From IMG/VR virus record IMGVR_UViG_3300022602_000029, positions 129,747 through 193,746 of that record: a DNA stretch of 64,000 nucleotides. One strand, 5' to 3'. Below, piece by piece: positions 3 through 36,306 of the stretch. Under the pieces are notes generated by a model. The model saw only the letters and a program-made list of their open reading frames with translations, was not told where the DNA came from and did not search any database. This DNA comes from a virus. Position 1 is the stretch's first letter. Each line of letters starts with the position of its first letter. The position numbers were made by a program, and so were the translations under genes.

Positions 3-299
3 ATGAAGATGGATGAGCAGTATGATTTCAAGTATTATCAAAACATATTTAATCCTGGAAGCTATGACAAATGTCAGCCTTGTGATCTTAAGCAGGTATG
101 TAACGCAGGATGTACCTACAGCCAAGTTATGAATGATAATAAACCTTTAGATTCAGTTTGTGAACTATTTCACATCTATTATGAACAGGCTATGAGAGTA
201 GTAGCCGCATGTAGGAATGAACCTATCTTCCAAGACCTAATATTACATTACATTGAAAACGTAGGTGTAGAATCAGAAGGTGTAGAATGCAGGAACTAA
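3..299 (+). CDS. C-terminal SPASM-like part of a probable radical SAM protein (gene likely begins upstream of the window)
   Basis: CQPCDLKQVCNAGC is a Cx2Cx5Cx3C SPASM-type cluster motif followed by ...SVCELF; the ORF abuts the window edge. Confidence 0.7.
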   Translation: MKMDEQYDFKYYQNIFNPGSYDKCQPCDLKQVCNAGCTYSQVMNDNKPLDSVCELFHIYYEQAMRVVAACRNEPIFQDLILHYIENVGVESEGVECRN

Positions 300-604
300 A
301 AAAGAAAACCTATCGCAGTTTGGCAAGTATTCCTGTCAAGGTAGAGATGCAGCCCGTTGAACATGCTACTGATCGTGTATTGACTACAGAAGAACTACAA
401 GAGCAGATAGAAGAAGCACGTAAAGGCAAGGCCAAGGTAGATAGTAAGTATGTAGGTTTCGAGTTAGATGAACGCGGACATCTATTTGAATATAAACTAG
501 ACTATGTTTCTTTTTTATCCGATATGAGTTATATCATCAAAGAAGCTAAAAAGAGACCAAAAGAAAACAGATACAAAAATACTCACGAGATGATTATACA
601 ATGA
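287..604 (+). CDS. hypothetical protein in radical SAM cluster
   Basis: 105-aa ORF overlapping both neighbours (ATGA coupling at 601); no recognised motif. Confidence 0.6.
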   Translation: MQELKKKTYRSLASIPVKVEMQPVEHATDRVLTTEELQEQIEEARKGKAKVDSKYVGFELDERGHLFEYKLDYVSFLSDMSYIIKEAKKRPKENRYKNTHEMIIQ

Positions 605-1494
605 TACCCATCATACAGGAAAATCCAGGATTAGGTTTCTATGTAGGAGATTCTACAGATAAACCCACACCTGTAGGGTCTGGTGTGAATGTAATCTATT
701 TTACGAATAAATGTAATCTGGCCTGTACCTACTGCTATGAAGATCTTCCAGGTCGTCCTCCGCAGATAATGACGCGAGAAGATATACGTAAATCAATAGA
801 TATGATATTATCCAGAGAGAATCCTGATAACCAGACCTTGATAGTATTATTTGGAGGAGAAGCTACTCTAGAATGGGAAAATGTCTGCTACTGCATGGAG
901 TATGCCTACAGTAAAAAGACTAACATACACTTTAATCTCACTACTAATGGTATAAAATATCTCAGTCAAAAGTTTATCGACGAAACTAAAACTAACTTTT
1001 TCTACAGTATGGGCCTATTAAGCATAGATATCAGCTTTGATGGTGTTGGTAATGGGGACAGAGTATTCCACAACGGATCGGATTCTACCCTTTCTATGAT
1101 CAGAGTTTTTGGAAATCTCTTGAAGAATAACGTGAAGTTTAGGATAAGATACACTATGCATCATAGAAATATCAATAATATCTATGAAGATATATCTATG
1201 ATCATCAATAAGTTCCGTCCTACGAGATTAATCACCAGTGTAGCCTGGGATACATTACAAGACGGTGATAGATCTAAACTAGAGTCAGCAAAAGAACTGT
1301 TCAGAAAAGACTGGATAAATAAAAAAATAACTATTCCTGTCTGCGAATTCTTTTGTGATATGTGTAGCGGATGCGGAGAGAGGAAAGAATTGAAAACATA
1401 CTACACAGATGAAGGTAACGTAACTACTTATGGTAACTATGAAAACGCTCCAAAGTTCCATGATTTTAAAGAAAAGGTAACAATATGTCAGTAA
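601..1494 (+). CDS. radical SAM protein (anaerobic sulfatase-maturase/peptide-maturase-like)
   Basis: CNLACTYC (CxxxCxxC, nt 712-735), FGGEA, TTNG, ISFDG; short C-terminal CEFFCDMCSGC cluster. Confidence 0.9.
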   Translation: MIPIIQENPGLGFYVGDSTDKPTPVGSGVNVIYFTNKCNLACTYCYEDLPGRPPQIMTREDIRKSIDMILSRENPDNQTLIVLFGGEATLEWENVCYCMEYAYSKKTNIHFNLTTNGIKYLSQKFIDETKTNFFYSMGLLSIDISFDGVGNGDRVFHNGSDSTLSMIRVFGNLLKNNVKFRIRYTMHHRNINNIYEDISMIINKFRPTRLITSVAWDTLQDGDRSKLESAKELFRKDWINKKITIPVCEFFCDMCSGCGERKELKTYYTDEGNVTTYGNYENAPKFHDFKEKVTICQ

Positions 1495-1859
1495 TCGAAA
1501 AAATGAACCAAATAGCGTCTCTGATAGGTGAGATCAAACAGGAAGATGAAAATGCTGGAAATCTTCTGGCAGAAGGGTTTCTTCTATCAGCTAAACTAAT
1601 GCAGGAGATAACAGAAGCTGGAAATAGAGACAAGATTGATATTTCAGAACATTTAGCGATGATCGGAAGAGTTTTTGGTTTCACCGTGGAAGACCTAGTA
1701 AAATTTGTATTACAGAATAACTTCCAAAGCGTCGAATCAGACAAAGAACCTGATCCGGCCACATTAGAATTTATAACCAGCGATCTAGACGACTATGAAA
1801 AATTCTTAGCACAGAATAAAGCAAAGGAAGACCTAGATTTCCTATCTAAGGAGATTTAA
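1485..1859 (+). CDS. hypothetical acidic helical protein
   Basis: 124-aa ORF coupled between the rSAM gene and the Cys-rich gene; supplies the AAGGAG RBS of the next gene. Confidence 0.65.
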   Translation: MSVIEKMNQIASLIGEIKQEDENAGNLLAEGFLLSAKLMQEITEAGNRDKIDISEHLAMIGRVFGFTVEDLVKFVLQNNFQSVESDKEPDPATLEFITSDLDDYEKFLAQNKAKEDLDFLSKEI

Positions 1860-1861
1860 AA

Positions 1862-2650
1862 ATGACCTATTGTTCTTGCCTAGCCTGCGGTTCAGTTTGC
1901 TGTAACGCCACTGGCGGGGGTACTTGTGGACCTCAAGGATGTTGTGCTTCCTACGCTACAGCCTCATTAAGTTATAGTACAGGTATATGTGGCGCCGGAA
2001 GTTGTTCCTACACACCTACTTCTCTATCAGGAGTGATCTGTGGAGCTTGTTTTTGCCAACTATTGACTAATGTCTGCTGTGAAATGTGTAGAAGGAATCG
2101 TAGTGCTCCTAGCGGATGGGGACAGAGTAATCCTATTAATCACTCTGATTTTAACAGTTTGGTAAACTATATCAACCAATCTAGTTGTTGGCCTGCCGCT
2201 TGCTATCAAAGCTATTGTAATGGTAGTACGACTCCATGTAGTCAATCTAGTGCTGGAGCTCCATCGGGGGTTCCCGCAAACGCTAACGCAGGAGATGTAA
2301 TTTATAGTAGCTGTATAAATGCCTTAGTCAGCGCCATAGTTACTGCTGGTAATGCCTGTACCTGTAACTGCAACTACTGTACATGTAACTGCAACTACTG
2401 TACCTGTAACTGTAACTATACATGTACCTGTAACTGTAACTACAGTGATATCAGATTGAAAAAGAATATCAAACTATTGAAAACTATTAAGGGTATAAAC
2501 ATCTACAGTTTTAACTATGAATGGGATGACACAGAACAGATAGGAGTGATGGCACAAGAATTATTAGAATCAGGACATGACTATGCTGTCACTACAGATT
2601 CGAATGGGTTTTATATGGTTGATTACAGCAAACTACCAGTGAAGATGTAA
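1862..2650 (+). CDS. Cys-rich virion/fibre-like protein with C-terminal peptidase S74 intramolecular chaperone
   Basis: 33 Cys in the first 194 aa; residue 195 begins SDIRLKKNI...GVMAQEL...VDYSKL, the S74 chaperone signature; strong RBS aaggag. Confidence 0.85.
   Translation: MTYCSCLACGSVCCNATGGGTCGPQGCCASYATASLSYSTGICGAGSCSYTPTSLSGVICGACFCQLLTNVCCEMCRRNRSAPSGWGQSNPINHSDFNSLVNYINQSSCWPAACYQSYCNGSTTPCSQSSAGAPSGVPANANAGDVIYSSCINALVSAIVTAGNACTCNCNYCTCNCNYCTCNCNYTCTCNCNYSDIRLKKNIKLLKTIKGINIYSFNYEWDDTEQIGVMAQELLESGHDYAVTTDSNGFYMVDYSKLPVKM
2357..2443 (+). repeat. 4 x 21-bp coding tandem repeat encoding CTCNCNY
   Basis: tgtacctgtaactgcaactac-type units at 2357, 2378, 2399 and 2423, with one extra Thr codon before unit 4; in frame, with synonymous variation. 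Confidence 0.97.
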
Positions 2651-2659
2651 GGAAGTAAA

Positions 2660-3058
2660 ATGGATTATAAAGAAGTAGAAGGAATAGATGCTAACACATA
2701 CGCAGGTAAAGCCGCTCAGGCCTGTAAGGTAAAAGCGAGAGGTATATTGGGAGATGATCTTTTAACTTTTAAACTTATTGATTTTGTATCATTTATTATG
2801 ATAAACAATCGGTTTTTAAATAAAGGGATTATCATAACTGATGAAAACAAAGAAGAAGGATATATCAAGATTATAGAAACAGGAGATGAATCTCTAATAT
2901 CCGATCTAGAAAAGTACCTAGATCTTAGGGATAGTATTAAGAGTATAGAAAATTCTAAGAATGAATACTCTGATATCATCAATAAACTTAAATCATTGCA
3001 GGATCATAATGATAGAGATTCAGTCAATGCTATAGTCGAAGAATATCTAAGACGATAA
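2660..3058 (+). CDS. hypothetical protein, possible partner/chaperone of the Cys-rich protein
   Basis: 132-aa helical ORF with RBS aaggaag directly after the Cys-rich gene; role inferred from position only. Confidence 0.6.
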   Translation: MDYKEVEGIDANTYAGKAAQACKVKARGILGDDLLTFKLIDFVSFIMINNRFLNKGIIITDENKEEGYIKIIETGDESLISDLEKYLDLRDSIKSIENSKNEYSDIINKLKSLQDHNDRDSVNAIVEEYLRR

Positions 3059-4082: not shown

Positions 4083-5023
4083 GATTTAAAAATATCGAGC
4101 AGTACAAAATGTCTAAGATATTTAATCTCAAGCAATATGATCTAGTCTTCACTACTTCGTTTTATATCAAACACGGAGTGTCTGGACACATGTATGAGTT
4201 GATTGATTATTATTATATTTGTAAAAAGTCTGGAATCAACTGTGCTATCCTTTTAGCAGACGGCGTTGACAAACAAACATTTTTCAATGCGATCAAATAC
4301 AAATACAACTTTGACATAGATATCCTAAAGGATACACACCAATGTCATAACCCTAGAATTATTAGAACTAAGAATATCTGCATCGTAGATGGTTCCTGGA
4401 GAGTTAATGACTGTACAATATATGCAGACAACGCATTCTTATTAAGATGCTCAGAAGACGACTATACTTGGTTTGATACCAGTAAGTCAATTAAGCAAAC
4501 ACATCTTATGCAGGACTTTAAACTGTATCCAGAACGATACCGAGACTTAAACATTAAGGTTGTTGATTATGTTAAGAAAATACTTTGGAGCAAATATGTA
4601 CAGCCCAAACCGACTAATAACGATACCGGTTTGTTTTATCTAACAACTAACTGTAGAGCAATCCCTGCAGAAGAAGTTAAAGCTATTATGGATAAGGGTA
4701 TATGTACAAATTATATTATAGTCACTGACCGTCCTAATCTTTACCAACCTCTGTTGGCTGATAATGTATCTATAGCACAGGCTCCATTACAGAATATATT
4801 TGAACATTTTGACACCTACATATATACTAAGACAGAATTACAGTCTGATTGCAGTCCTAGGTTTATTGTTGAGTGTGCTATGTTTGGTAAAAACGTTGTT
4901 TACGAAATTGATTATCTATGCGCAGGTGTAGAACGTAGAAAACAGGACATAGATGCAGACTTATCAAGTTTAGAATTAACTACAGATGATTACTTTGTAG
5001 AATACGTAAAACAGTTTATATGA
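4079..5023 (+). CDS. putative GT-B-like glycosyltransferase (start TTG 4079 or ATG 4109)
   Basis: C-terminal DCSPRFIVECAMFGKNV resembles the GT-B nucleotide-binding segment; N-terminal HGVSGH loop. Confidence 0.45.
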   Translation: MRFKNIEQYKMSKIFNLKQYDLVFTTSFYIKHGVSGHMYELIDYYYICKKSGINCAILLADGVDKQTFFNAIKYKYNFDIDILKDTHQCHNPRIIRTKNICIVDGSWRVNDCTIYADNAFLLRCSEDDYTWFDTSKSIKQTHLMQDFKLYPERYRDLNIKVVDYVKKILWSKYVQPKPTNNDTGLFYLTTNCRAIPAEEVKAIMDKGICTNYIIVTDRPNLYQPLLADNVSIAQAPLQNIFEHFDTYIYTKTELQSDCSPRFIVECAMFGKNVVYEIDYLCAGVERRKQDIDADLSSLELTTDDYFVEYVKQFI

Positions 5024-6072
5024 TACCTATTAGAACAGAGTCCAATCATCTCGCTGAATTAAGTTCCGCAGGGCTAGAGCTTGATCTTATAACACAACCC
5101 TGTGTTCGTGCTAGATTAGATACAGGTACATTTTGTAATTACGACTGTGAGTTTTGTTACTACAGAGATAAACTAGATGTTAAGACAGAGTTTGATATTG
5201 TAAAAGAACGTGCAGACTATTTGCTTGCCTACGGTATCAAACAAGTAGACCTAAGTGGAGGAGAAAGCTCTGTAAGCCCTGATTGGTTTAAGATACTAGA
5301 CTATTGTAATGAACGCTTTGAACACGTTAGTTGCCTAAGTCACGGAGGTAGATTTGCCAATATTGAATTCCTACAGGAGTCAATGGAGCATGGACTAAAA
5401 GAAATCTTGTTTAGCCTACACGGAGCAACAGCAGAAACACATGATGCTATTACCAATCGTAAAGGATCCTTCAAACGTATCCTTCAAGCAATCAAGAATG
5501 CACAAGAGCTAGGATGTGTAGTACGAATTAACTGTACTGTCTATCACAAGAACTATCATCAACTGGTAAACATCTATGCTGACCTAATTAATGGAATCAA
5601 ACCTTTAGAAGTTAATTTTATTACATTAAACTATTGGGATGATGTTTACATTGATAATGTTACCTACAAAGATATGACTGACAACATTAAAAGTTGTATT
5701 GATATCTTAGACAAGGGTATGATCATCAATGTCCGTTATGTGCCTTATTGTTACATGAAAGGCTATGAGAAATATGTGTGTGATCAATATCAACACATAT
5801 ACGATATCTATGATTGGAATAAGGAAATGTATTCTAATGTGATTGATGTTAGTAAAACCTATACACAGGAACAAAAGATACAGTTTGCCTATGATGCTTG
5901 TAAGAAGTTTCGTGCTAGGTTTTATCGTAAACAAGTTGATTGCCTGAAGTGCAAACACTTCTATATTTGTGATGGTATTGAAAGAGAAATAGCTGACAAG
6001 AATCCTGTGTTTCCAGAAGCAGGAGATAAGATCAAACAGGTTAATTTTTATAGAGCAGTACATTTCAAATGA
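5020..6072 (+). CDS. radical SAM protein with C-terminal Cys cluster
   Basis: CNYDCEFC (nt 5134-5157), LSGGES, SLHG, C-terminal CLKCKHFYICDG. Confidence 0.9.
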   Translation: MIPIRTESNHLAELSSAGLELDLITQPCVRARLDTGTFCNYDCEFCYYRDKLDVKTEFDIVKERADYLLAYGIKQVDLSGGESSVSPDWFKILDYCNERFEHVSCLSHGGRFANIEFLQESMEHGLKEILFSLHGATAETHDAITNRKGSFKRILQAIKNAQELGCVVRINCTVYHKNYHQLVNIYADLINGIKPLEVNFITLNYWDDVYIDNVTYKDMTDNIKSCIDILDKGMIINVRYVPYCYMKGYEKYVCDQYQHIYDIYDWNKEMYSNVIDVSKTYTQEQKIQFAYDACKKFRARFYRKQVDCLKCKHFYICDGIEREIADKNPVFPEAGDKIKQVNFYRAVHFK

Positions 6073-6680
6073 AACTGTCTATATTAATTCTTACACACAA
6101 TCGTCCTAAATTATTCAAACGTTGTTTGGAAAGTGTTCTCACACAGATAACTCCAGAAGTTGAAGTGTTGGTTAATAATGACAGTTGCGATATTGAAGAG
6201 ATTGTTCATTCGCAGGTACAATATTTTTATAACAAGTTTGATAGCCTATGTGAGATATATCAATTCCTACTATCAAAGGCGCAGGGAACCTATGTGTACT
6301 ATTTAGAAGATGATGATTATCTTGTTACTGATTTTCTAGAACAAACATTAGATGCAGATTTGATTGTTGGTAATTACTGTCCTAAATATGCAACAGAAGA
6401 CATGCTGACTTTTATGACTATGTATAACAACAACAGAGTAACATCGGCTGAGTTTTTATCTAATCTTAATACAGAACATCTGCAACTATCGCAACACATA
6501 TACAAGCGTGAACATATAGTAGATTTTAATTTTCCAAATGACAGTAACGTACACAACGATATTAAACTAACAATACACGCGGCTAACAAAGCAAGGGCTA
6601 TTAGAACAGTAAACAAAGTGTTTTACTTTCAAACAATAGATGGTGGAGATAATATCTCTTTTCCTAAACATGAACTATAG
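6069..6680 (+). CDS. glycosyltransferase family 2-like (GT-A)
   Basis: LSILILTHNRP...CLESVL N-terminus, VNND, YYLEDDD acidic motif. Confidence 0.8.
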   Translation: MKLSILILTHNRPKLFKRCLESVLTQITPEVEVLVNNDSCDIEEIVHSQVQYFYNKFDSLCEIYQFLLSKAQGTYVYYLEDDDYLVTDFLEQTLDADLIVGNYCPKYATEDMLTFMTMYNNNRVTSAEFLSNLNTEHLQLSQHIYKREHIVDFNFPNDSNVHNDIKLTIHAANKARAIRTVNKVFYFQTIDGGDNISFPKHEL

Positions 6681-7572
6681 CAAGCAACATCACATCGACC
6701 AAGACCCTGATCATATCAACGTGCATTGGGATGTTCTTACGATCTGTCAGTTAAAGTGTAGCTATTGTTATGCTCGTAATGAGTATGGAAAGAAGTGGGG
6801 TAAGCTGGGCAGTCGTGAAATCGCCGACGGAGTATTAGAAGCACTGAACAGAAGTAGCTTACCATTTAACCTAGGATTGTTGGGCGGAGAGCCTACACTA
6901 AGCCCGCACTATTATTACATCTTAAATCGTATTAGTGAGATGGAAAAGTTTAATAAAGTTTATGTTGTAACTAATGGAGAAAAGGACTTTGCTACGCACC
7001 CAGACTATGAAAAGATTGCTTTCTTGTTTAGTTATCATCCTGCTGATTGTACAAATAGGGATCGGTTTGTTTCTAATGTAAAACTAATGAAGGATCGTGG
7101 CTATAAAGTTAAAGTTAACGTAATGTTACATCACGGCAAGCAGTATTGGCCATTGATCAAAGAAATGTTTGAAATATGCGATGCTATAGGTGTCAAAGCA
7201 CATCCACACTTTATATATGGTAAAAGTGTACACCAACTGTTTAACTATCGTAAAGCCTTTTGGGATTACTTTAGTTTCTTAAAAGAAAGAGACAGAGAAC
7301 TAGTCTATGGCGATGAACTTAAGAACGATTACGAAATCTTTAGCGAACGTCTAACAAACTTCGAAGGCTGGAGTTGTTACAACAACAACTATGAGCTAGA
7401 TGTCTACGGTCAAGTGATTAAGTTCTGCTTAGACAATGAGCGTAAGAGCCTTCTTGAGAATCCAGACTTCTTTAAAAACATAACCAAGACCGTACCTATG
7501 ACATGCCCTCACAAGGCCTGCAACTGTGATGGCTTACTCAAACAACTTAAGGTGAATCCAAATGCAAGTTGA
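6670..7572 (+). CDS. radical SAM protein with short C-terminal Cys-rich domain
   Basis: CQLKCSYC, LGGEPT, VTNG; C-terminal GWSC...FC...CPHKACNC; start moved to the coupled ATG at 6670. Confidence 0.88.
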   Translation: MNYSKQHHIDQDPDHINVHWDVLTICQLKCSYCYARNEYGKKWGKLGSREIADGVLEALNRSSLPFNLGLLGGEPTLSPHYYYILNRISEMEKFNKVYVVTNGEKDFATHPDYEKIAFLFSYHPADCTNRDRFVSNVKLMKDRGYKVKVNVMLHHGKQYWPLIKEMFEICDAIGVKAHPHFIYGKSVHQLFNYRKAFWDYFSFLKERDRELVYGDELKNDYEIFSERLTNFEGWSCYNNNYELDVYGQVIKFCLDNERKSLLENPDFFKNITKTVPMTCPHKACNCDGLLKQLKVNPNAS

Positions 7573-8308
7573 ATGGGAAGTCACAATGAAGTGTAACTAC
7601 AACTGTTACTATTGCTCTAACCTAGACAAGAGCATACACCATATCACTGATCACGAAGTCCTGCGCAACTTTATCAAAATTTTGGGAGAAACTTATCCAG
7701 GTGTGGAGATATTCCTGTTTGGAGGAGAGCCATTTGTGCATCCTGAAATAGGTTTCATCATTAAATGCTTTAACGAATTTAATATTCCATTTGTAATACA
7801 AACTAATCTAAGCAAATACAGTATTGAAGTTATGAAAACTATCGATTCTCCTTATATACTACAGGCTAGCATACATCCTACAGAAATATCACACCAAGAC
7901 CTCGAAGACATCCTTAAAGAAAATATCGTATGTAGAGTTGTTGATGTAATGTTCAGTGGCAAGGAAGCCTTGTGGTACTATTTTAAAGTAAAAGAAAGCA
8001 CAACTGGTAAAGTATATCTTACTCCAGTTACAGATTTTGGAGATGGCCGCAGTGATACCGCTTTACAGGAATACTTGAGTTTAAAAAATGATCCTAACTA
8101 TAATAAGATAATAAAATTTGAGGAAATAGAAAGGCTAGGCAAGCCTAGATCAGAACTGTGGGCTACAATATCCTTTAGTCCTAAAGGAAAGCCCTGTCTA
8201 TACAAAGACAAATACTTTCTGTACAGTCCACAACTAGAGATGTACAACTGTTGCTATAGAATTAAAACGGACGGCATCTGCCCAAAAAGCAAATGCTTCT
8301 TAATGTAA
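7562..8308 (+). CDS. compact radical SAM protein
   Basis: CNYNCYYC, FGGEPF, QTNL; C-terminal PCLY...NCCYR...CPKSKC. Confidence 0.88.
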   Translation: MQVEWEVTMKCNYNCYYCSNLDKSIHHITDHEVLRNFIKILGETYPGVEIFLFGGEPFVHPEIGFIIKCFNEFNIPFVIQTNLSKYSIEVMKTIDSPYILQASIHPTEISHQDLEDILKENIVCRVVDVMFSGKEALWYYFKVKESTTGKVYLTPVTDFGDGRSDTALQEYLSLKNDPNYNKIIKFEEIERLGKPRSELWATISFSPKGKPCLYKDKYFLYSPQLEMYNCCYRIKTDGICPKSKCFLM

Positions 8309-8748: not shown

Positions 8749-9557
8749 GATACTTAATTGCCGGAGCATTTAGCAAGTCAATTCCTATAATCAAGTTCCT
8801 TGGACAGCGTATTGTAGACAGCACACAGTTAGTTGTCTATGACGGAATCAATAAATGTCGTTGGAATGGAGGACGCATTAATAGAGATGTTTATTACAAA
8901 GACTCTCTTATCGACTATTATTACAGTAAAGGTATTAGTATCGCATTAACATTTAGTAATCATAAGATTAACATTGATGATCCTTTAGGTAATGAGTTAT
9001 TGAAAAAGTTTCATAGGAAAGGCAATGCGCTTATTATCATCAATGATGATCTGCGTAGACATGTGCGTGAGAACTTTCCTAAGTACGATTTAATCTACAG
9101 CATTACAGGTATGGGCTTACTCAATATTCCATTGCAGGATGAAGATATTGCTTTTTATAAACAACTTGAACAAGATTATGACTGGATAGTTCCTCGATTT
9201 GAGCATATATTTGATCCTCGATCCTCTGAGCTTGACAAAACCAAATGGGAAGTTATGTTAAACGATACATGTGTTTATGGGTGTAAACATTGGGACGAAC
9301 ATTTTAAGGCTATCGCAGATGAAAACACTGCTGGCCGTCCTTACAGCAAAGAAGTAGAAGAGTGTTGGTTACCAAAGTTTGATTTTAACAAAGACAGCAA
9401 ATATGAATGCATGGATATCAAACCAGAGGCCATGCGCAAGTTACTAGAATCTGGAGTCAAAAGTTTCAAGATTACAGGTAGGGAAATGACTGATGAGGAA
9501 TACTATGGTGAGTTGACTAGATTTGTAGATCGAAGCTTGACGGCACTAAAGGAATAA
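8745..9557 (+). CDS. U32-family (UbiU/UbiV/TrhP-like) protein
   Basis: WNGGRINR, LNDTCVYGC, later Cys residues (ECW, ECM) and FKITGRE, resembling the U32 K-x-x-G-R motif. Confidence 0.65.
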   Translation: MRYLIAGAFSKSIPIIKFLGQRIVDSTQLVVYDGINKCRWNGGRINRDVYYKDSLIDYYYSKGISIALTFSNHKINIDDPLGNELLKKFHRKGNALIIINDDLRRHVRENFPKYDLIYSITGMGLLNIPLQDEDIAFYKQLEQDYDWIVPRFEHIFDPRSSELDKTKWEVMLNDTCVYGCKHWDEHFKAIADENTAGRPYSKEVEECWLPKFDFNKDSKYECMDIKPEAMRKLLESGVKSFKITGREMTDEEYYGELTRFVDRSLTALKE

Positions 9558-9570
9558 GATATAATAACAT

Positions 9571-10644
9571 ATGGCAGACTGGAAAAAACTAAAGATAGTT
9601 AGAGATAAAGAGGACATGCAGGTCGGGCAGATTAGACCGATGCGTTCTTATAACGTGCTCAGCGAAATAGAACAGGGCGGTATTGACTATGACTATATGG
9701 TTACTTTCCGTATCACAGAAGCTTGCGATCTAAAGTGTAACTACTGCCATTGGCATAGCGGAGCACATTACAAATATGAAGACATCATAACCACTATTGA
9801 TAGATTATTTGATTTTTTTATCAAACAAGATTTTAAATCTGTACTATTTTATTATCATGGCGGAGAACCTACTCGACATCCTAGATGCCTAGATATCCTA
9901 AAATATATACACCAAAAAGGTATAGACAAAGGAATAGATGCCTATAACGAGATGCAGACCAATCTTACCATTAAAGAAGATAAACTTCGTGCTATGCTCC
10001 CTTATTGCGATCAGTTTAATGCCAGTTTTCATTATTTAGAATTAAAAAGATTAAACAAACTTAAAGACTTTGACCACAACTGGGAAGTTATTAAGCAGTT
10101 AGAAATACCTATCCATAATATGGATATAATGATGGAGAATGTTGAACGAGGGGATAGATGGTATCAAGGTAAGACTGTAGAGGTCATACCTGAAGAGTTT
10201 TATAATAAAGTAGTCGATTATCTTAAGTATGACAAGATCCAAAACTGCGAGATGATCTATGGATTTTGCCATTATGTTTATCCGGAAGATGTAGCCGAAA
10301 AGCATATGGCATTTTATAAACAGCATAACAAAACAGAACAACGATACGAGATAGATGATATTATATATACCACCAACGACCTATTCAAACTAGGTATAGA
10401 TGCACGCGGATGGAAATGTGCGGCAGGTCAGGAATCTATCACTATCAATGGAGATGGTAATGTTTTCCATTGCGGAATACATATGACAAATTTTATACGT
10501 GATAGCCAGCCCGAGACTCCTTATACCAATCTAGTTAATGACAAACTCGCGATCACCAAACTATCAGTGCTGTATAAAACAGGTACTATCTGTCGCTGGG
10601 ATTATTGTGGCGGAGATTTCTATCTCAGTAGGGGCCCAAAATGA
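9571..10644 (+). CDS. radical SAM protein with C-terminal Cys-rich domain
   Basis: CDLKCNYC, HGGEPT, QTNL; C-terminal GWKCAAG...FHCG...CRWDYC. Confidence 0.9.
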   Translation: MADWKKLKIVRDKEDMQVGQIRPMRSYNVLSEIEQGGIDYDYMVTFRITEACDLKCNYCHWHSGAHYKYEDIITTIDRLFDFFIKQDFKSVLFYYHGGEPTRHPRCLDILKYIHQKGIDKGIDAYNEMQTNLTIKEDKLRAMLPYCDQFNASFHYLELKRLNKLKDFDHNWEVIKQLEIPIHNMDIMMENVERGDRWYQGKTVEVIPEEFYNKVVDYLKYDKIQNCEMIYGFCHYVYPEDVAEKHMAFYKQHNKTEQRYEIDDIIYTTNDLFKLGIDARGWKCAAGQESITINGDGNVFHCGIHMTNFIRDSQPETPYTNLVNDKLAITKLSVLYKTGTICRWDYCGGDFYLSRGPK

Positions 10645-11234
10645 AAACCATATCATTATTTCCTATAGATGTTTATACTAAGAAAATAGATGTCGACTGG
10701 AACCAATCTCAGATATTAGAAAGACTAGACAGGTATTTTCTAGATCAAAAACATAACGGAGTAGTGGATAATGATCTACATAAGGAAGTTTTGTTCAAAC
10801 CCCTAGTAGAATTTATGGATGTGGCTGTTGCTGAATATTGGAAAATATTAGACTACGATACTGGATATCCAGTATCGATAAGTCAGCTTTGGGCGAATAG
10901 ATATGACCAGGGCGATCTCTATCCTCATAATCTGGACAATGATAGTCCTGCTATCGTAACCTGCGTATTCTATGTTAGCAAGGATTCTGCAGAACAAGGC
11001 AATCTGTTTTTCGGAGACCCTAACCATTTATTGATTAAGACACAACCGCTCAGTACTAATCGTAGGTACCAGAGCCAACCGGAGTTCGATGGAAGGACTG
11101 GGGACCTAATCTGTTTCCCGAGCTGGCTACAGCATGGCATAAAACCTAATCACACTGATATCCCTAGACTGTCTATAGCGGCTAACTATGAGCTTAAAGG
11201 TTTGAATACGATTAAAAAGGCTATGACCAAATGA
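10641..11234 (+). CDS. 2OG-Fe(II) oxygenase-like (phage TIGR02466-type)
   Basis: WANRY...PHN...CVFY...FPSWLQH...RLSIAAN double-stranded beta-helix pattern. Confidence 0.75.
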   Translation: MKTISLFPIDVYTKKIDVDWNQSQILERLDRYFLDQKHNGVVDNDLHKEVLFKPLVEFMDVAVAEYWKILDYDTGYPVSISQLWANRYDQGDLYPHNLDNDSPAIVTCVFYVSKDSAEQGNLFFGDPNHLLIKTQPLSTNRRYQSQPEFDGRTGDLICFPSWLQHGIKPNHTDIPRLSIAANYELKGLNTIKKAMTK

Positions 11235-26647: not shown

Positions 26648-29600
26648 ATGACCATAAGAAAAATAGCATCGGGGCAGGTAAACACAACACTAGCAAACTA
26701 TGTGGGAGAAAACGGACATCTTTTCTATGATCCTACTTCCAGGATAATACGAATAAGTGATGGACATACTCCCGGCGGAGTACAGTTTAATTTTCAGTTC
26801 GCAACTACTACAACCACTGGAGCTGTTAAAATAGGATCTGGAATAGCAGTAGACTCTAGCGGTACTATCAGCGTAGATATAGCACAGCTTGATATAGACA
26901 TACAGGCACTGACTACTGATGTATTACCTGCTACTAACTTGGCATATAATCTAGGTAGTCCAACAAAGCAATGGAAAAGTCTCTATGTAGGCACCAGCAC
27001 AATATATCTCGGTGGTATTTCATTGAGTGTCAATACTAGCACAGGTCAGTTGATTATCAATAATACCAGCACAGCTATCTATTCAGCAGAAGATGGAACT
27101 GTGGTTTTTCCTACAGGAATTGTTTTTAATACCGCGAGCTCTATCGTACTACCTATTGGCGGTTATATTACATCCGTAGATGGTGGCAGTCCTTCTTTAG
27201 TGGCATCACAAGGTAATGCCGCAGTGATCAGCAACGCTAGCTCTTTTAATCAACTATATGCTTGGGATAACGGGGTTTCTATCCAAACTAGCGCTAATAA
27301 CAGCGGAACTACCTTTACCACATGGGCTTTTAATAATAATGGTAGTTTAACAGCACCGGGCAATATCAATTGGTCTACAAACTATACCATAGATGGAAGT
27401 AGCGCCACTAATGGTATTGCCATGACCACCGATCGTGGAACTATATTGTTTGGTAATCATCCTGAAGTTGGGGGTGTCACCCACTTCCACATCATGAAGC
27501 AAAATCCCGAAGCTGTTGATCTTATATTTGGAGATGATTCTAATAATGTTACAATGCTATCAGGGTCTGGTCCTGGCAGTGGCGGGGTTAAGGTTACTAC
27601 GCAAGATTATTATGGAACAGGTAATCTATATAATTGGAATTTTGATAGTTCTGGTAGTTTGACCGTTCCTGGTAATATTTCAATGCCCTATCAATCTTGG
27701 ATAGACCTTAACGGCGATGACACTAACTGGCGTATAGGAATGAATTTGAATGCTTATTCCAAATCATTCGCAACAAGTACTATCGATATTGTAGTTGGCC
27801 AAGGTTCGGTAGGACCAGATGGATTTTCAGTTGGACAAACAGGAGGCCAAAGCATATTTGAACTCAACGGATATGATAGATCAGCCTACTTCTTGGGGTC
27901 AGTAAATATCAGTGACACATTAAATTTACAAGGTAATACTTCAAACATTAATTTTGCCAATAATGTTTCTATATATAGTAGTAGTAATGGACTCATTGAT
28001 ATCAGTTCAGGTGCCGCAGATATAACGGTTCAAAACGGTGTAGTATCTATAGTAGTAAACAATCAAAATGCTCAAAGCAAAACTTGGATTTTTGATTACT
28101 CTAGTGCCACTGGTGCCACTATAACATTTCCTGACACTTCAGTACAATCTACAGCCTGGACTGGATCCACAAGTACCTTAGTAAACGGCACATGGACCGC
28201 AGTATTGAGTAACACCGGAACTTTGCGTGTACAAAATCTCCAGGTACTAGGTACATTAACTACCATCAATAAAGAAAGCGTTACCGTTGAAACCGTAGGA
28301 ACCCTAAACTTTACCGATACTACTGTACAAACCACAGCGTGGAATACAGCAACAACTGTTTATTATAACCAGATCAGGAATACTCCTAATTTTATATCTA
28401 GTTCCAGTATTAGTGTCAACACCGGCAGTGCTATCACAACAGGTAGCCTAGCTTACAATCCATTAACCAGCGTATTCACGTTCAATCCAACTGCGCCTTT
28501 CAACACCGCTACCTTAGTAGCCACTGCCGTAACTGCCAACAGCTTAGGCAATGGTGTTATCTCCATTGCTAACACCAGTGCGTCTACTAGCACCAATACT
28601 GGTGCTCTGGTAGTAGCAGGTGGTGCGGGTATAAACGGCAACGTAAACATAGGGGGTGCGGTACTAATAGGTACCAATACCAATCTTTATGTTAACGCCC
28701 AGGGACTTTCTCCATTAGGTGGCGGGTATTTCAATGTATCACCAGTACAATCAAAATATCCATTTAATAATATATTTGGAGGAGTGAATACTGCCAATAC
28801 TTCTGTGATACAGGCGCTATCTCTAGGTGGAACACTTATAGGTACTACTATCACACAATACTCATATCTGATGCAGAATGGGGGTAGCTGGAATCCGCCT
28901 GCTAATGGTATAATGAATGGTGGAAATAGCACATATCTATTTGGTCTAGATCAGCAACCTACATGGGGTAATACAGCTACATCGGCAGTGGGAACACCAT
29001 TTGGTATCTATCTCAATCGTATTTTCTTAAACGCAGGCCCGTCTTCCACCGGCACGGTAACCAATGTCTATCACATTGGAATTAATAATATAAATGCTGA
29101 TGCCGCATCTAGTGCTACTATAACTAATGTCTATGGTATCTATCAAGCAAACTTTGCCCAATCAAATAATGTAAGTATAACCAATGCTTATGGATTCTAT
29201 GGTAGACAGACTACAACTGGTGCCACAGCTACCAACTGGAACTTGTACATGCAGGGCAATGCTCCTAACTATATGGCGGGGAACCTATATATAGGAACTA
29301 CAGCGCAAAGCGGCGGAGCGATATTAACAGTCAACGGTGGAGTATATGTCAACGGCATACTGACTGCTACTACTATAGCTGCCACATCTAGTATCACTAT
29401 CAATGGATATGCTGTATCTACCGCAACATCATTTAATACAGCTACCTTGGTAGCTAACGCAGTAAATGCACAGATAGCCACTACAACTACTAACTTTAAC
29501 ACAGCTACTTTGGTAGCCAACGCGGTAAATGCGCAGATAGCCACTACAACTACTAACTTTAACACAGCTACTTTGGTAAACATAGCACAAAACGTAGTAG

Positions 29601-31201
29601 GTGGTATTGGTGTTAGTTCGCTAGTAGCAGGCACTGGAACAAATATCAGCGCATCGAGCGGTACTGTTACTATTTGGACGACTGCTACAGGCGGAACATT
29701 TAATACATCAACATTAGTAGCCAACGCAGTAAATGCACAGATAGCGACTACAGCTACTAACTTCAATACCGCTACCTTGGTAGCTAATTCCGTTAATGCA
29801 CAGATAGCGACTACAGCTACTAACTTCAACACAGCAACGCTGGTCAATATAGCACAAAACGTAGTAGGTGGTATTGGTGTTAGTTCGTTAACTGCTGGTA
29901 CAGGAACCGTAGTATCGGCTAGTTCAGGAAGTGTAACTATATGGATCAACACCGCTACATTGATGGCGACAGCCGTCACAGCTCTTAACGCTAGCGGAGT
30001 CAGCGCTACTACTACCAGCACACTAACCGCTGGTACATATACAGCCGTGTTAAGTTCAGCTACAGGAGTATTGAGTGTTCCGGGCACCATAGCAGGTACG
30101 GCTAACACCAGCACGGTACAGATACAGTCTACCTATAACAACAGCACAGGTACTTGGTCGTTTAACTACAATGGTACTACAGGTACAGTCACATTCCCAG
30201 ATGGTACTGTTCAAACCACGGCCTACAGCACCGGTTCTTTGACCGTTAATACAGCCAGTTTCACTGGAGGTATAGTTAATATAGGCAGCGGAAGCAGTGG
30301 TGCTATATTCCAGACACTAGTAGGTGGTTCTTCGTTCGCTTTGTATTCGAGCAATCTAGTACAGTCAGCACAAAACTACGCATTGGCTTATAATGGCGCT
30401 TCATTGAATCTCAATGCTCCAACTAGTGGCGGTATCTACAGCAGTATCAACAATTCGATTATTACTACCTTAAACTCTACCGGACTGCAGATAAATTCTG
30501 CCACTGCTAGCACATCGACTACGACTGGTGCTTTACAGGTAACTGGTGGCGTTGGTGTCGGTGGTACTGTTACAGCCAGCAAGTTTGTTGGTGATGGGTC
30601 AAGTCTAACCAATATAACATTGAATCAGGCGGGAAATATTATTGGTACACAGACGAACGTGACCCTAGTGGCTGGTACTTCGACATACCTATTTGACAAT
30701 ACCGGAACATTGACCATGCCTTACAATGGCGACATTGTGATGACAGGTACTAATGCTAATATTATAGTAGGTGGCAATATAACAATGCCTAACCGTCCAG
30801 CGTTCCGTGTATATGGCAATAGTAACACAGGCATAAGTTCTACAACAACAATTACCAGCAGTAATTTTACACTTGATTATCAACAAGGTTCGGCTCTAAA
30901 TACATCAACTGGTATATTCACTGCTCCTGTTGCTGGCTTGTACATGGTAACTCTAGACATTAGAACCAACAGTAATACTAACGGCTCTATTGGACAAGGA
31001 ATAGTTAGAAAAACTGTGGCCATAGGCGGTGCAACATCAACCCAAATCATGGTTGAGTTTGGTGCAAATACTACTATGAATCATGCGGGCGGTAGTACTA
31101 TTGTTAAGATGGCATTAAATGATACTCTTCAAGTTATTGTTACTAGCGGAACACTGAATTTTGACAGTAATGATAGTTGGGCAGTAGCCTTCATGGGATA
31201 A
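26648..31201 (+). CDS. long tail fibre protein with C-terminal C1q-like domain
   Basis: 1517 aa, S/T/G/N-rich; GHLFYD..IRISDGHTPGG N-terminus; C-terminal PAFRV...FTAPVAGLY...AFMG. Confidence 0.8.
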   Translation: MTIRKIASGQVNTTLANYVGENGHLFYDPTSRIIRISDGHTPGGVQFNFQFATTTTTGAVKIGSGIAVDSSGTISVDIAQLDIDIQALTTDVLPATNLAYNLGSPTKQWKSLYVGTSTIYLGGISLSVNTSTGQLIINNTSTAIYSAEDGTVVFPTGIVFNTASSIVLPIGGYITSVDGGSPSLVASQGNAAVISNASSFNQLYAWDNGVSIQTSANNSGTTFTTWAFNNNGSLTAPGNINWSTNYTIDGSSATNGIAMTTDRGTILFGNHPEVGGVTHFHIMKQNPEAVDLIFGDDSNNVTMLSGSGPGSGGVKVTTQDYYGTGNLYNWNFDSSGSLTVPGNISMPYQSWIDLNGDDTNWRIGMNLNAYSKSFATSTIDIVVGQGSVGPDGFSVGQTGGQSIFELNGYDRSAYFLGSVNISDTLNLQGNTSNINFANNVSIYSSSNGLIDISSGAADITVQNGVVSIVVNNQNAQSKTWIFDYSSATGATITFPDTSVQSTAWTGSTSTLVNGTWTAVLSNTGTLRVQNLQVLGTLTTINKESVTVETVGTLNFTDTTVQTTAWNTATTVYYNQIRNTPNFISSSSISVNTGSAITTGSLAYNPLTSVFTFNPTAPFNTATLVATAVTANSLGNGVISIANTSASTSTNTGALVVAGGAGINGNVNIGGAVLIGTNTNLYVNAQGLSPLGGGYFNVSPVQSKYPFNNIFGGVNTANTSVIQALSLGGTLIGTTITQYSYLMQNGGSWNPPANGIMNGGNSTYLFGLDQQPTWGNTATSAVGTPFGIYLNRIFLNAGPSSTGTVTNVYHIGINNINADAASSATITNVYGIYQANFAQSNNVSITNAYGFYGRQTTTGATATNWNLYMQGNAPNYMAGNLYIGTTAQSGGAILTVNGGVYVNGILTATTIAATSSITINGYAVSTATSFNTATLVANAVNAQIATTTTNFNTATLVANAVNAQIATTTTNFNTATLVNIAQNVVGGIGVSSLVAGTGTNISASSGTVTIWTTATGGTFNTSTLVANAVNAQIATTATNFNTATLVANSVNAQIATTATNFNTATLVNIAQNVVGGIGVSSLTAGTGTVVSASSGSVTIWINTATLMATAVTALNASGVSATTTSTLTAGTYTAVLSSATGVLSVPGTIAGTANTSTVQIQSTYNNSTGTWSFNYNGTTGTVTFPDGTVQTTAYSTGSLTVNTASFTGGIVNIGSGSSGAIFQTLVGGSSFALYSSNLVQSAQNYALAYNGASLNLNAPTSGGIYSSINNSIITTLNSTGLQINSATASTSTTTGALQVTGGVGVGGTVTASKFVGDGSSLTNITLNQAGNIIGTQTNVTLVAGTSTYLFDNTGTLTMPYNGDIVMTGTNANIIVGGNITMPNRPAFRVYGNSNTGISSTTTITSSNFTLDYQQGSALNTSTGIFTAPVAGLYMVTLDIRTNSNTNGSIGQGIVRKTVAIGGATSTQIMVEFGANTTMNHAGGSTIVKMALNDTLQVIVTSGTLNFDSNDSWAVAFMG
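29432..29945 (+). repeat. nested coding repeats in the tail fibre
   Basis: 63-bp FNTATLVANAVNAQIATTTTN units arranged in two blocks offset by 267 bp (starting 29432 and 29699). Confidence 0.9.
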
Positions 31202-34056: not shown

Positions 34057-36306
34057 ATGTCACGCAATCTAACTACGAACTATAGATATCAAGACGCTAT
34101 GCCACAGCGTGTACGAGATGTACTAGGCAGACTAAAAGTATCTATTCATCAAAATATATATGAAGCTGACTTCGAGTATGGCCCCCAACCTTTACGTTGG
34201 GAACAATATGTACAGACTTTCGATGGAGTCAGTGGAATCACAGCTATTCCTAGCAGCGGCGGTGTGCGTATGCGTGTAGGTACTACACTAGGTGATATTA
34301 CCATACGTCAAAGCCGTCCTTATCACAGATATCAACCAGGTAAGACCATGTTCATGGCTACCGGTCTAAACCTAGGAACTGCTCTTACAGGTAACCTACA
34401 ACGAGTGGGATTCTTTGATGATTCAAACGGTGTGTTCTTTGAACAGGGAGTATCTACACCTGGTAATCCATTTGGTATGCACACAGTGGTACGCACTGAC
34501 GTAGGCGGAACAGTTTATGAAACACGTACTCCTTTAGATCAATGGTCAGGAGATCCGTCATTGATCAATAAGCTAGATTTTGCCAAGATACAGATGTTTT
34601 GGATAGAATATGGATGGTACGGTGCAGGTGCAACACGTTGGGGCTTCTGGCTAGATGGTGAGCCATTCATCGCTCATCAGATTGGTTGGGGTAACTATCA
34701 GAATCCTTACAATCTAAATTCACAGACTACACCTTGGGCACGTACAGGTAACTTACCAGTTCGCTATGAACAACGTAACACAGCAGGTACAGCAGTATTA
34801 AATGACATGTACCACTATGGCGTATCAGTTATCGTAGAAGGACGCACAGATGACCAACGCGGATTTACCTACGCATATGGATTACCAAACACAGTACAGA
34901 CCCGTGTCGTAGCACCAAGCACCAATAGATTTCCATTGTTGACCATACGCGGACGTCAGCTAGGTACCCAGGAATATGGCACAGTATACGCTACCAGCGG
35001 CACCAATACCCCTATCACCAGCTTATCGAGTGCTACCACAGCATTCACTATCGTTAACGCTTCTACTATCAGCAATATCATAACAGTAAGCACGTTAACA
35101 CAGGGAACTGTCCAAACTGGTATGCAGATACAGGGAACAGGTATGCCCTGGGGAGTCTCTGTAGTTACACAGCTTACCGCCAATAACAATCCTGCCGCTA
35201 CTATCACTACAACTAACACAGTCGCAGTAGGATCTGGAACTATATTCTTGTCAACATGGACAGGAGTAGCCACGGGGCAGCTGGTATCTGCTGCCGGCAT
35301 ACCTAACGGCACGTTCGTGGGAACCACAGCCAGTGGCGTGATCACTCTAGTAGATAAGTTTGGTATCAGCGTATCGATCACACAGCAGATATCCAGTGCT
35401 ACTACTGTAAGTTTCTATACGCCCGGAGTAGCCGGAACCTACCAGCTAAGCCAGACACCGTCTTTGCTAGTTTATTCTACACAGACATCGGTACAGGGAT
35501 TCGTACAGCAGTTTAATATCGCCAGTGCTAATCTTCCTGTAAACTATTATCAAGGACGTGTGGTATTTTTCCCCTATCTAGGTACACAGGGTAACGGAAT
35601 GATGGCACGTATAACCGCTAATAGCAGTAGCACATTATATTGCGTAGATAACGTAGTTGGCCTACAACTGAGCGCACTACCTACTGTTGGTACCATAGCT
35701 ACACCATCTATGACAGCCGGCACGATTGGCAACAATACATTCACTGTATCTAGCATATCAGGCATAGTAGCAGGATTGGCAGTAAGTGGTACAGGTATAT
35801 CCTCCGGAAGCCTAGTGACCTATGTTACCGGTACCACAGTTACAGTCAACCTACCCTTATACAGTAATGTCAGCGGTAATGCTACTTTCGTACAGGGCTA
35901 CTGCATAGGATTAGCCAATCGTGGACAGCTATTACCCAAGCGATTGATGGTCAGTTCTGATTATCGTTGTGTGGTTGAGCTGATCAGCGGAGGGACTACC
36001 AATCCAGTAGTTTTCAATGGACAGCAACCAAACTATGTTCCTATGTCACAAATCGGTAGTCCCAACTCATTCGCTGAACGAGATTATATATCTACAGCTA
36101 CAGTGAACAACACCGGTGAGGTGGTATTTGCCTTTACACTAGCGGCTGGATCAGGATTACAAGATATCGATCTCAGCTACTTCTTCCCCTTATACAACAA
36201 CATCCGCGGTAATCAGATCGATACGCTAACACTAGCGATCACCACGGTACCGGGTACGACTGCTACAGTAGGTGGACACTTGATTTGCCAGGAGGCTATG
36301 AGTTAA
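34057..36306 (+). CDS. putative structural protein (749 aa)
   Basis: RLKVS...YQPGK...RVGFFD...GNLPVRYE pattern with a Thr-rich insert; TAAATA at 34024. Confidence 0.6.
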   Translation: MSRNLTTNYRYQDAMPQRVRDVLGRLKVSIHQNIYEADFEYGPQPLRWEQYVQTFDGVSGITAIPSSGGVRMRVGTTLGDITIRQSRPYHRYQPGKTMFMATGLNLGTALTGNLQRVGFFDDSNGVFFEQGVSTPGNPFGMHTVVRTDVGGTVYETRTPLDQWSGDPSLINKLDFAKIQMFWIEYGWYGAGATRWGFWLDGEPFIAHQIGWGNYQNPYNLNSQTTPWARTGNLPVRYEQRNTAGTAVLNDMYHYGVSVIVEGRTDDQRGFTYAYGLPNTVQTRVVAPSTNRFPLLTIRGRQLGTQEYGTVYATSGTNTPITSLSSATTAFTIVNASTISNIITVSTLTQGTVQTGMQIQGTGMPWGVSVVTQLTANNNPAATITTTNTVAVGSGTIFLSTWTGVATGQLVSAAGIPNGTFVGTTASGVITLVDKFGISVSITQQISSATTVSFYTPGVAGTYQLSQTPSLLVYSTQTSVQGFVQQFNIASANLPVNYYQGRVVFFPYLGTQGNGMMARITANSSSTLYCVDNVVGLQLSALPTVGTIATPSMTAGTIGNNTFTVSSISGIVAGLAVSGTGISSGSLVTYVTGTTVTVNLPLYSNVSGNATFVQGYCIGLANRGQLLPKRLMVSSDYRCVVELISGGTTNPVVFNGQQPNYVPMSQIGSPNSFAERDYISTATVNNTGEVVFAFTLAAGSGLQDIDLSYFFPLYNNIRGNQIDTLTLAITTVPGTTATVGGHLICQEAMS

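Follow-up and report, generated by a model that had tools for sequence, protein, structure and literature searches.

Peptidase_S74 (S74) domains are typical of phage fibres and spikes. They act as chaperones that trimerise and then autocleave at the serine of a Ser/Lys pair. In described S74/ICA domains, such as those of the tailspikes and fibres endosialidase K1F and T5 pb1 and that of MyRF, the domain is C-terminal, carries the Ser and the Lys five residues apart at its start and is cut before the Ser. The same arrangement is predicted for P0001, a protein encoded in the 64,000-nucleotide stretch analysed here (the window), which is the last 64 kb (positions 129,747 to 193,746) of the 193.7-kb IMG/VR virus record IMGVR_UViG_3300022602_000029, estimated to be 54% complete. 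In P0001, however, the S74 domain follows an array of Cys-rich heptads, whereas known S74/ICA domains follow a triple beta-helix or a receptor-binding domain; the fused domain of P0001 is also short (68 residues), and in its family the domain is often naturally split, unlike the K1F, T5 pb1 and MyRF type. By its sequence, P0001 is a member of a large, undescribed protein family of T4-like and other tailed phages, in which a body of three helices precedes the Cys heptads (C-T-C-N/D/Q-C-N-Y); the record itself encodes a T4-type gp23 capsid protein. We lean slightly towards a reading in which S74-assisted assembly and self-removal are combined with stapling of the array by radical S-adenosylmethionine (SAM) enzymes, in a virion-associated protein.

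In the sequence of events that we propose, the S74 domain would bring three chains together, as expected from knowledge of the S74 family. Ser195 and Lys200 would then cut the Y194-S195 bond, leaving a chain of 194 residues with the array's last Tyr at its end. Three PapB-like radical SAM/SPASM enzymes, encoded next to P0001, would cross-link Cys residues of the array to nearby side chains, for which each heptad holds two C-x-x-N/D/Q motifs. The protein, probably part of the virion and associated with tail fibres, would thereby gain a stapled segment that withstands reduction, and the S74 domain would serve as assembly and exit module, not as recognition peptide of the enzymes.

Chemistry of this kind has been described for CrpC of Methanococcus voltae. 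This SPASM radical SAM enzyme forms ranthionine thioethers in CrpA, a Cys-repeat protein with C-X-X-Q/D repeats (PMC13692751, 2026). Both systems have a substrate of more than 100 residues with C-terminal Cys repeats of the C-x-x-polar type and an adjacent SPASM enzyme related to ranthipeptide synthases; the P0001 heptad offers C1-x-x-[N/D/Q]4 and C3-x-x-[N/D]6. The P0001 system is viral and not archaeal, has repeats of 7-8 instead of 17 residues and three enzymes instead of one. Its enzymes lack an RRE-like N-terminal region, its substrate carries an S74 tail or stub, and its chemistry is here predicted by analogy. The best-scoring enzyme families for the P0001 enzymes are those of PapB/PapA (freyrasin) and CteB/CteA (SCIFF), both of which act on Cys-rich repetitive cores, whereas the P0001 system has no short leader-core precursor. 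PapB links Cys to the carbon beside the carboxylate of a downstream Asp or Glu, and a C-terminal residue can serve as well (PMC12373016). A full-text literature search for the motif CNCNY gave no relevant paper, and in the literature on phage thioether tail fibers and phage ranthipeptides we found no description of such a system.

The open reading frame (ORF) of P0001 is preceded by an AGGAG ribosome-binding site 8 nt upstream. A preliminary description of this DNA had placed the heptad repeat and the junction at 2357-2461, with the last Tyr codon at 2441-2443 followed immediately by S195-D-I-R-L-K200, and all of this was found to be correct on re-reading of the ORF: codon 166 starts at 2357, Ser195 is encoded by 2444-2446, and Lys200 ends at 2461. 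Residues 166-194 contain 12 Cys among 29 residues, and Tandem Repeats Finder detected the array with a period of 21, 4.0 copies and 88% matches. Its units differ only synonymously (ACC/ACA, TGC/TGT, TAC/TAT), and the heptad motif occurs once in the whole virus record. The S74 identity proposed earlier, with Ser and Lys five residues apart, agrees with the match of residues 195-236 to Pfam PF13884 (E 2.8e-8, 34.4 bits, gathering cut-off 22), which covers profile positions 1-51 of 58 and places position 1 on Ser195, so that S195 and K200 open the domain. This match is far beyond chance. In PHROG, P0001 matched 'virion structural' and 'tail fiber' families at their S74-bearing ends.

A word-indexed search gave 680 homologues of P0001 at E<=1e-3, the best 120 of which were used for column statistics. 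The Cys and Tyr columns of the array as well as S195, D196, R198 and K200 were invariant in all 120. The Ser followed directly after the last Tyr in 113 of them and after one further residue in the other 7; the Tyr/Ser-Asp junction is a constant of the family. The repeat array itself was kept throughout (120/120), with exactly four units in the 7-7-7-1-7 spacing in 106, and 85 homologues had no Cys outside it. Over the 29 codons of the array, 30 distinct DNA versions were compared: the 12 Cys and 4 Tyr columns were invariant, with TGT/TGC and TAC/TAT both freely used; amino acid changes clustered at heptad positions 2 and 4 and at the one-residue linker, position 4 being N, D or Q and position 6 N or D. 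Because the Cys and Tyr columns do not vary while both synonymous codons are used, the array is clearly under strong purifying selection at the protein level. The preliminary description had drawn this conclusion from the synonymous differences between the units of P0001; the cross-species evidence is much stronger than this within-gene evidence.

The first homologue search was biased to proteins with the same tail, and a profile was hence built from body and array only and searched against 1.84 billion cluster representatives. At E<=1e-3, 385 clusters (50% identity) were obtained, 257 of them at E<=1e-10, and the tail classes were scored among the best 150 of the 385. A fused S74 domain of 66-90 residues, like that of P0001, was present in 23. 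In 60, the array was followed by a 12-residue stub recognised by the pattern SDxxΦKxxΦxYΦ, and inspection by eye added about 10 stubs in which position 5 is Thr (SDxxTK...). Another 42 stopped 0-5 residues past the last Tyr, 24 of these exactly at the Tyr, and the remainder had other tails. Among 54 distinct stubs, S1, D2 and K6 were present in 100%, I9 in 91% and Y11 in 89%.

The missing part of the domain was found in a gene of its own. In locus L016, the stub gene (9815-10372) ends in SDRRLKTDIKYL-TAA, followed by GGAG, ATG and a 103-residue ORF (10385-10696) that has its own AGGAG and ATG and matches S74 profile positions 16-55 (E 1.2e-8). In L034 (9167-11997), four tandem paralogues all carry the stub, and a single 88-residue ORF for the remainder of the S74 domain follows the last of them with a stop overlap (TAATG); L075 and L079 likewise have 3-4 tandem stub-type paralogues and then one free-standing S74 gene. 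The free-standing proteins (88-103 residues) start where the stub ends, and in alignments they carry a C-terminal helix absent from the short fused form: the latter stops soon after ...VDYSKLP, whereas the free-standing relatives go on with a helix of the LIAPLVKAVQEL type. In a pool of 97 distinct loci from IMG/VR and metagenomes, a free-standing S74 gene lay directly downstream in 26 of the 32 stub-type loci by an automatic criterion. Reading by eye added L101, where it stands between paralogues, so that it was adjacent in 27/32; in L026 and L040 it was located elsewhere in the locus. No free-standing S74 gene was found in the fused-only (0/25) or the end-only loci (0/13). In terms of sequence, the S74 domain is thus naturally split in about half of the family diversity into a 12-residue Ser/Asp/Lys stub and a separate gene, and it appears to be an exchangeable module, able to work from a separate polypeptide or to be dispensed with. 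A keyword-level literature search found no paper describing a split S74 domain. Further split-S74 loci are L013, L022, L024, L039, L064, L065, L083, L087, L093, L106, L108, L120, L125 and others.

Stop-codon read-through or sequencing error was considered as the origin of the stubs and set aside, since their length is fixed at 12 in more than 50 distinct sequences. The downstream ORFs also speak against it: they have starts and AGGAG sites of their own, and their frame varies between lineages.

A different kind of tail was seen in some long members of the family, at L073:3700-4254 (also in L076 and protein P0211), where the array is followed by 9 residues and then by a tail beginning CFLAGTPV... 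and later containing SSEHPFW, which resembles a Hint/intein-type domain. Neither Pfam, with the threshold relaxed to E 10, nor a PDB sequence search detected a Hint domain in the tails of L073 and P0211, and the sole lead is a language-model search that Hint-domain clusters top (score 0.93); we do not claim Hint identity. If it is real, self-removing tails of two kinds would occur in this position.

The tail classes also bear on the mature end of P0001. A natural stop at the last Tyr or one residue later occurs in L038, L041, L080, L089, L098, L102 and L123; the stop codons of L038 (...CNCNY-stop) and L041 (...CNCNYS-stop) were verified. Because the predicted cut site coincides with the natural C-terminus of these relatives, the mature chain of P0001 most likely ends at Tyr194. 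Of the 194-residue mature chain with a 12-Cys end proposed earlier, the position of the end is thereby retained as the most likely one, and the cut that would produce it is predicted. The 36 Cys per trimer named there would follow from the trimerisation established for S74 proteins. Alternatively, the fused S74 domain could be a degenerate, non-cleaving remnant that is kept as a C-terminal trimerisation knob, giving a mature chain of 262 residues. This would fit a domain that is truncated compared to the free-standing versions and lacks their C-terminal helix, for which no solved S74 structure was matched by sequence and Foldseek returned only a weak match to the ICA domain of MyRF. We regard it as improbable, given that Ser, Asp and Lys are kept without exception (100%) in 102 distinct fused forms and 54 stubs, which is unexpected for a dead site, that the domain is modelled with a pLDDT (predicted score of the local distance difference test) above 90 and matches Pfam over the cut-off, and that relatives end exactly at the predicted cut.

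P0001 lies within a gene cassette. In its locus (L004), the gene order is radical SAM 1 (368 residues, SPASM), radical SAM 2, p105, radical SAM 3, p124, P0001 and p132. The best NCBIfam match of all three enzymes was the PapB ranthipeptide maturase (NF047865; 71.6, 127 and 80.8 bits). The SCIFF model (TIGR03974) gave 52-71 bits, compared to a cut-off of 425, and the 25 best families listed for each of the three did not include TIGR04463, the CrpC-type model. Enzymes 1 and 2 contain the radical SAM CxxxCxxC motif and SPASM Cys sets, and enzyme 3 has only a short CxxxCxxCxxC motif besides the radical SAM motif. Linkage was counted in the 57 distinct loci whose upstream DNA spans 5 kb or more: at least one radical SAM homologue was present in 55 and at least three in 47, with identities of 23-90% (median 46%) and with differing gene orders in distant lineages. 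Only enzymes 1-3 and p132 accompany the repeat gene into distant loci. This gene linkage and the enzyme family are the grounds on which we predict stapling of the array.

The preliminary description had likened the chaperone to the follower peptide of a peptide made on the ribosome and modified after translation (RiPP). In a true RiPP pathway, the S74 domain would recruit the maturases and then be shed, and the product would be a released, diffusible Cys-stapled peptide. The adjacent radical SAM/SPASM maturase-like genes, the Cys-rich repetitive core and the removable C-terminal extension, a term that fits S74 only in a loose sense, are in line with such a pathway. The cassette, however, persists with stub-only and with tail-less substrates, and all three enzymes were present in 8 of the 10 end-only loci with enough upstream DNA. 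That the linkage holds for tail-less substrates speaks against a role of the S74 domain as recognition peptide, and in this sense the preliminary description found no support. No N-terminal peptide-recognition (RRE) region was found on the enzymes, which start at the radical SAM motif and match the ~450-residue maturase profiles from about position 100; p105, p124 or p132 may be a separate RRE-like small protein. In addition, the conserved body of 130-200 residues, with its invariant E-x-x-R-R motif, stays joined to the array, a relative sharing the module was found in virions, and some loci lie in tail-fibre modules. A true RiPP pathway of this kind is to our mind highly improbable.

The main rival explanation leaves the array to metal or disulfides: it would form a metal-binding or disulfide-locked trimeric beta-structure, with the S74 domain nucleating the trimer and the radical SAM enzymes acting elsewhere, for example on a sugar or cofactor in a glycosyltransferase/radical SAM island. 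The tip of the T4 long tail fibre is an iron-binding needle with His-x-His motifs, of which the array would be a Cys counterpart. The alternation C-x-C-x-C-x-Y would make every Cys of a strand point to the same side, and S74 domains normally follow trimeric beta-helices. In a low-confidence model of an 11-unit member, the array takes the form of short strands, for which an alignment to Ca-binding RTX beta-rolls was obtained, though this is weak and not reliable (Z 5.5, root-mean-square deviation 2.4, 62 residues). Three more radical SAM genes and a GT2 glycosyltransferase gene also lie just downstream in the window. This island, however, is kept with the cassette only in closer relatives and stays behind in distant loci, whereas enzymes 1-3 and p132 do not, and enzymes 1-3 match peptide-maturase families best and not sugar or cofactor enzymes. 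Units of 7 and 8 residues are freely mixed in the arrays, a feature more in keeping with a stapled chain than with a strict helical register, and members without any S74 domain exist. Taken together, we consider this explanation unlikely, though the most serious of the rivals set out here.

In the AlphaFold2 monomer of P0001, helices were predicted at residues 61-77, 94-104 and 149-164 with pLDDT of about 80-95. For the body, only generic helical-bundle matches were obtained (Z up to 8.3). Foldseek of the model against PDB gave nothing at E<=0.001, a search of BFVD gave nothing significant, and a PDB sequence search with the family profile and the 68-residue tail returned nothing meaningful. 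The preliminary description had also seen virion-fibre motifs in two segments upstream of the array. The case for them proved weak: only PHROG 5668 (tail fiber) aligns, from residue 137 onward, and the segments (residues 92-100 and 144-155) begin the second and third helices and sit on nearly invariant columns of the family itself (I92, N98, I147, N153). At rank 29 of the BFVD search, a weak structural match was seen to A0A8S5UTL8, a 200-residue protein of an uncultured Myoviridae with the UniProt name 'Six-cysteine peptide SCIFF', which may be a family member filed under SCIFF by an annotation pipeline.

An indirect link to the virion came from Campylobacter phages. CP21, CP220 and vB_CcoM-IBB_35 encode a protein of 534-539 residues with six heptads (PHROG 26958; CP21_105, CP220 gp140 and IBB_35 gene 3-9), which in CP220 lies between tail tube/sheath and baseplate genes. 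As in the P0001 family, a helix precedes CxCxCNY heptads, and the phages are rich in radical SAM genes; helix and array of CP21_105 align to the family profile with an hhalign probability of 99.6%. The product of IBB_35 gene 3-9 (60.3 kDa) is among the 38 virion proteins identified by mass spectrometry (PMC3322345 supplement). Unlike P0001, the Campylobacter protein (534 residues) has another body and a 202-residue, Cys-containing C-terminal part and no S74 domain, and no radical SAM gene lies closer than about 2-3 kb, compared to the tight three-enzyme operon at P0001. In two loci of the family proper, L017 and L025, the repeat gene lies within tail-fibre gene modules. The P0001-family protein is probably part of the virion and associated with tail fibres. 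In cultured phages, no match to the window or to P0001 was obtained by megablast and tblastn, searches in which near-identical genomes may be left out and a low-complexity filter may mask the repeat.

In the CP220 record (L049), the six 21-bp heptad repeats (161808-161933) are annotated by the authors only as 'Repetitive region x.1-x.6'. The CP21 gene is labelled 'putative N-acetylneuraminate pyruvate lyase', for which our analysis gave no support. In IBB_35 (L052), a 'polydeoxyadenosyl region' is marked just upstream of gene 3-9.

Several observations weigh against a stapled, S74-processed virion protein. Mass spectrometric coverage of IBB_35 gene 3-9 was only 2.6% (PMC3322345 supplement), and this protein has the helix and heptad module, but not the body, in common with the family. 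The acceptor in P0001 would mostly be Asn, whereas PapB uses Asp or Glu, Thr also being named for ranthipeptide systems, and the PapB scores of the three enzymes lie far under the equivalog cut-off of 340. No radical SAM gene was found in L017 (with a duplicate, L018, on a second contig) or in L025, on contigs that are 9-23% complete. Related phages share ancestry, and the locus counts are not independent events. AlphaFold2 gave no confident fold for the array, either of the 4-unit or of the 11-unit member (pLDDT below 50-55). The fused S74 domain is short, reaches profile position 51 of 58 and has no C-terminal helix, so that its activity is not guaranteed. Cleavage, trimer and cross-link are predictions for every member of the family.

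With these points in mind, a wider form of the proposal is put forward only tentatively, and we would not call it probable: tailed phages may apply RiPP-type radical SAM chemistry to a virion protein of their own, with three enzymes stapling a Cys-heptad rod and with the S74 domain turned into a two-piece system, in which each substrate carries a 12-residue Ser/Lys tag and a reusable free-standing chaperone serves several paralogues; a Hint-like self-cleaving tail may stand in for it in a few members. If this is true, enzymatic thioether stapling would reach beyond small natural products and a single archaeal protein into virus particles, and phages would have a new means of toughening an exposed structure against reduction and proteases. 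The series of tails, whether fused, split or absent, would form a natural experiment on an intramolecular chaperone-protease turning intermolecular, and the predicted 12-residue self-cleaving tag with its helper could be tried as a tool for protein engineering. With at least 385 clusters (50% identity), the unnamed family is large, and it has cultured relatives in Campylobacter phages.

Table. Coordinates in the window of P0001, its parts and the adjacent cassette genes.
Feature	Position	Strand	Basis and remarks
Radical SAM enzyme 2, C-terminal (SPASM) end	3..299	+	Full protein 374 aa, L004:10922-12046; PapB 127 bits; SPASM-type Cys set at residues 250-329
p105, 105-aa accessory protein	287..604	+	45-73% identity, between radical SAM genes in closer loci
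Radical SAM enzyme 3, 297 aa	601..1494	+	PF04055 E 1e-10; PapB 80.8 bits; CNLACTYC at residue 38; CxxxCxxCxxC at 248-258
p124, 124-aa accessory protein	1485..1859	+	Kept directly upstream of the repeat gene in closer relatives
P0001, Cys-heptad protein with fused S74 domain, 262 aa	1862..2650	+	680 homologues at E<=1e-3
P0001 body, aa 1-165; family-wide E-x-x-R-R motif (E74, R77, R78), three helices	1862..2356	+	Alignments, AlphaFold2
Heptad array (CTCNCNY)x3-T-CTCNCNY, aa 166-194, 12 Cys	2357..2443	+	Tandem Repeats Finder, homologue alignments
S195-D-I-R-L-K200, predicted S74 catalytic Ser/Lys pair; predicted cut Y194/S195	2444..2461	+	Conservation, Pfam
Fused short S74 / intramolecular chaperone domain, 68 aa, without the C-terminal helix of free-standing versions	2444..2647	+	PF13884, pLDDT, alignment
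p132, 132-aa downstream partner	2660..3058	+	Most loci have a homologue next after the repeat gene or the free-standing S74 gene, also distant loci (31-51% identity)

The small proteins p105, p124 and p132 matched no Pfam or NCBIfam family above threshold, and for p132 there was also no fold lead and an Atlas search was uninformative. The N-terminus of P0001 (residues 1-77, window 1862-2092) is itself Cys-rich, with about 20-21 extra Cys in CSC, CC and CxxC patterns, and N-termini of another kind, likewise Cys/His-rich, are seen in distant lineages (MACGGH..C..H.GY is an example). Upstream of the window, L004 contains a UDP-glucose dehydrogenase-like and a 2-oxoglutarate (2OG)-Fe(II) oxygenase-like gene (7251-7991 and 9142-9789). 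The second co-oriented island downstream extends from 5020-8308 onward to about 20000 and includes radical SAM genes at 5020-6072, 6640-7572 and 7562-8308, with the GT2 glycosyltransferase gene at 6069-6680. Further into the window, a 1517-residue ORF at 26648-31201 had no PHROG match, the ORFs at 34057-36306 and 48029-49675 matched 'virion structural protein' PHROGs, and NrdA is encoded at 53069-55417.

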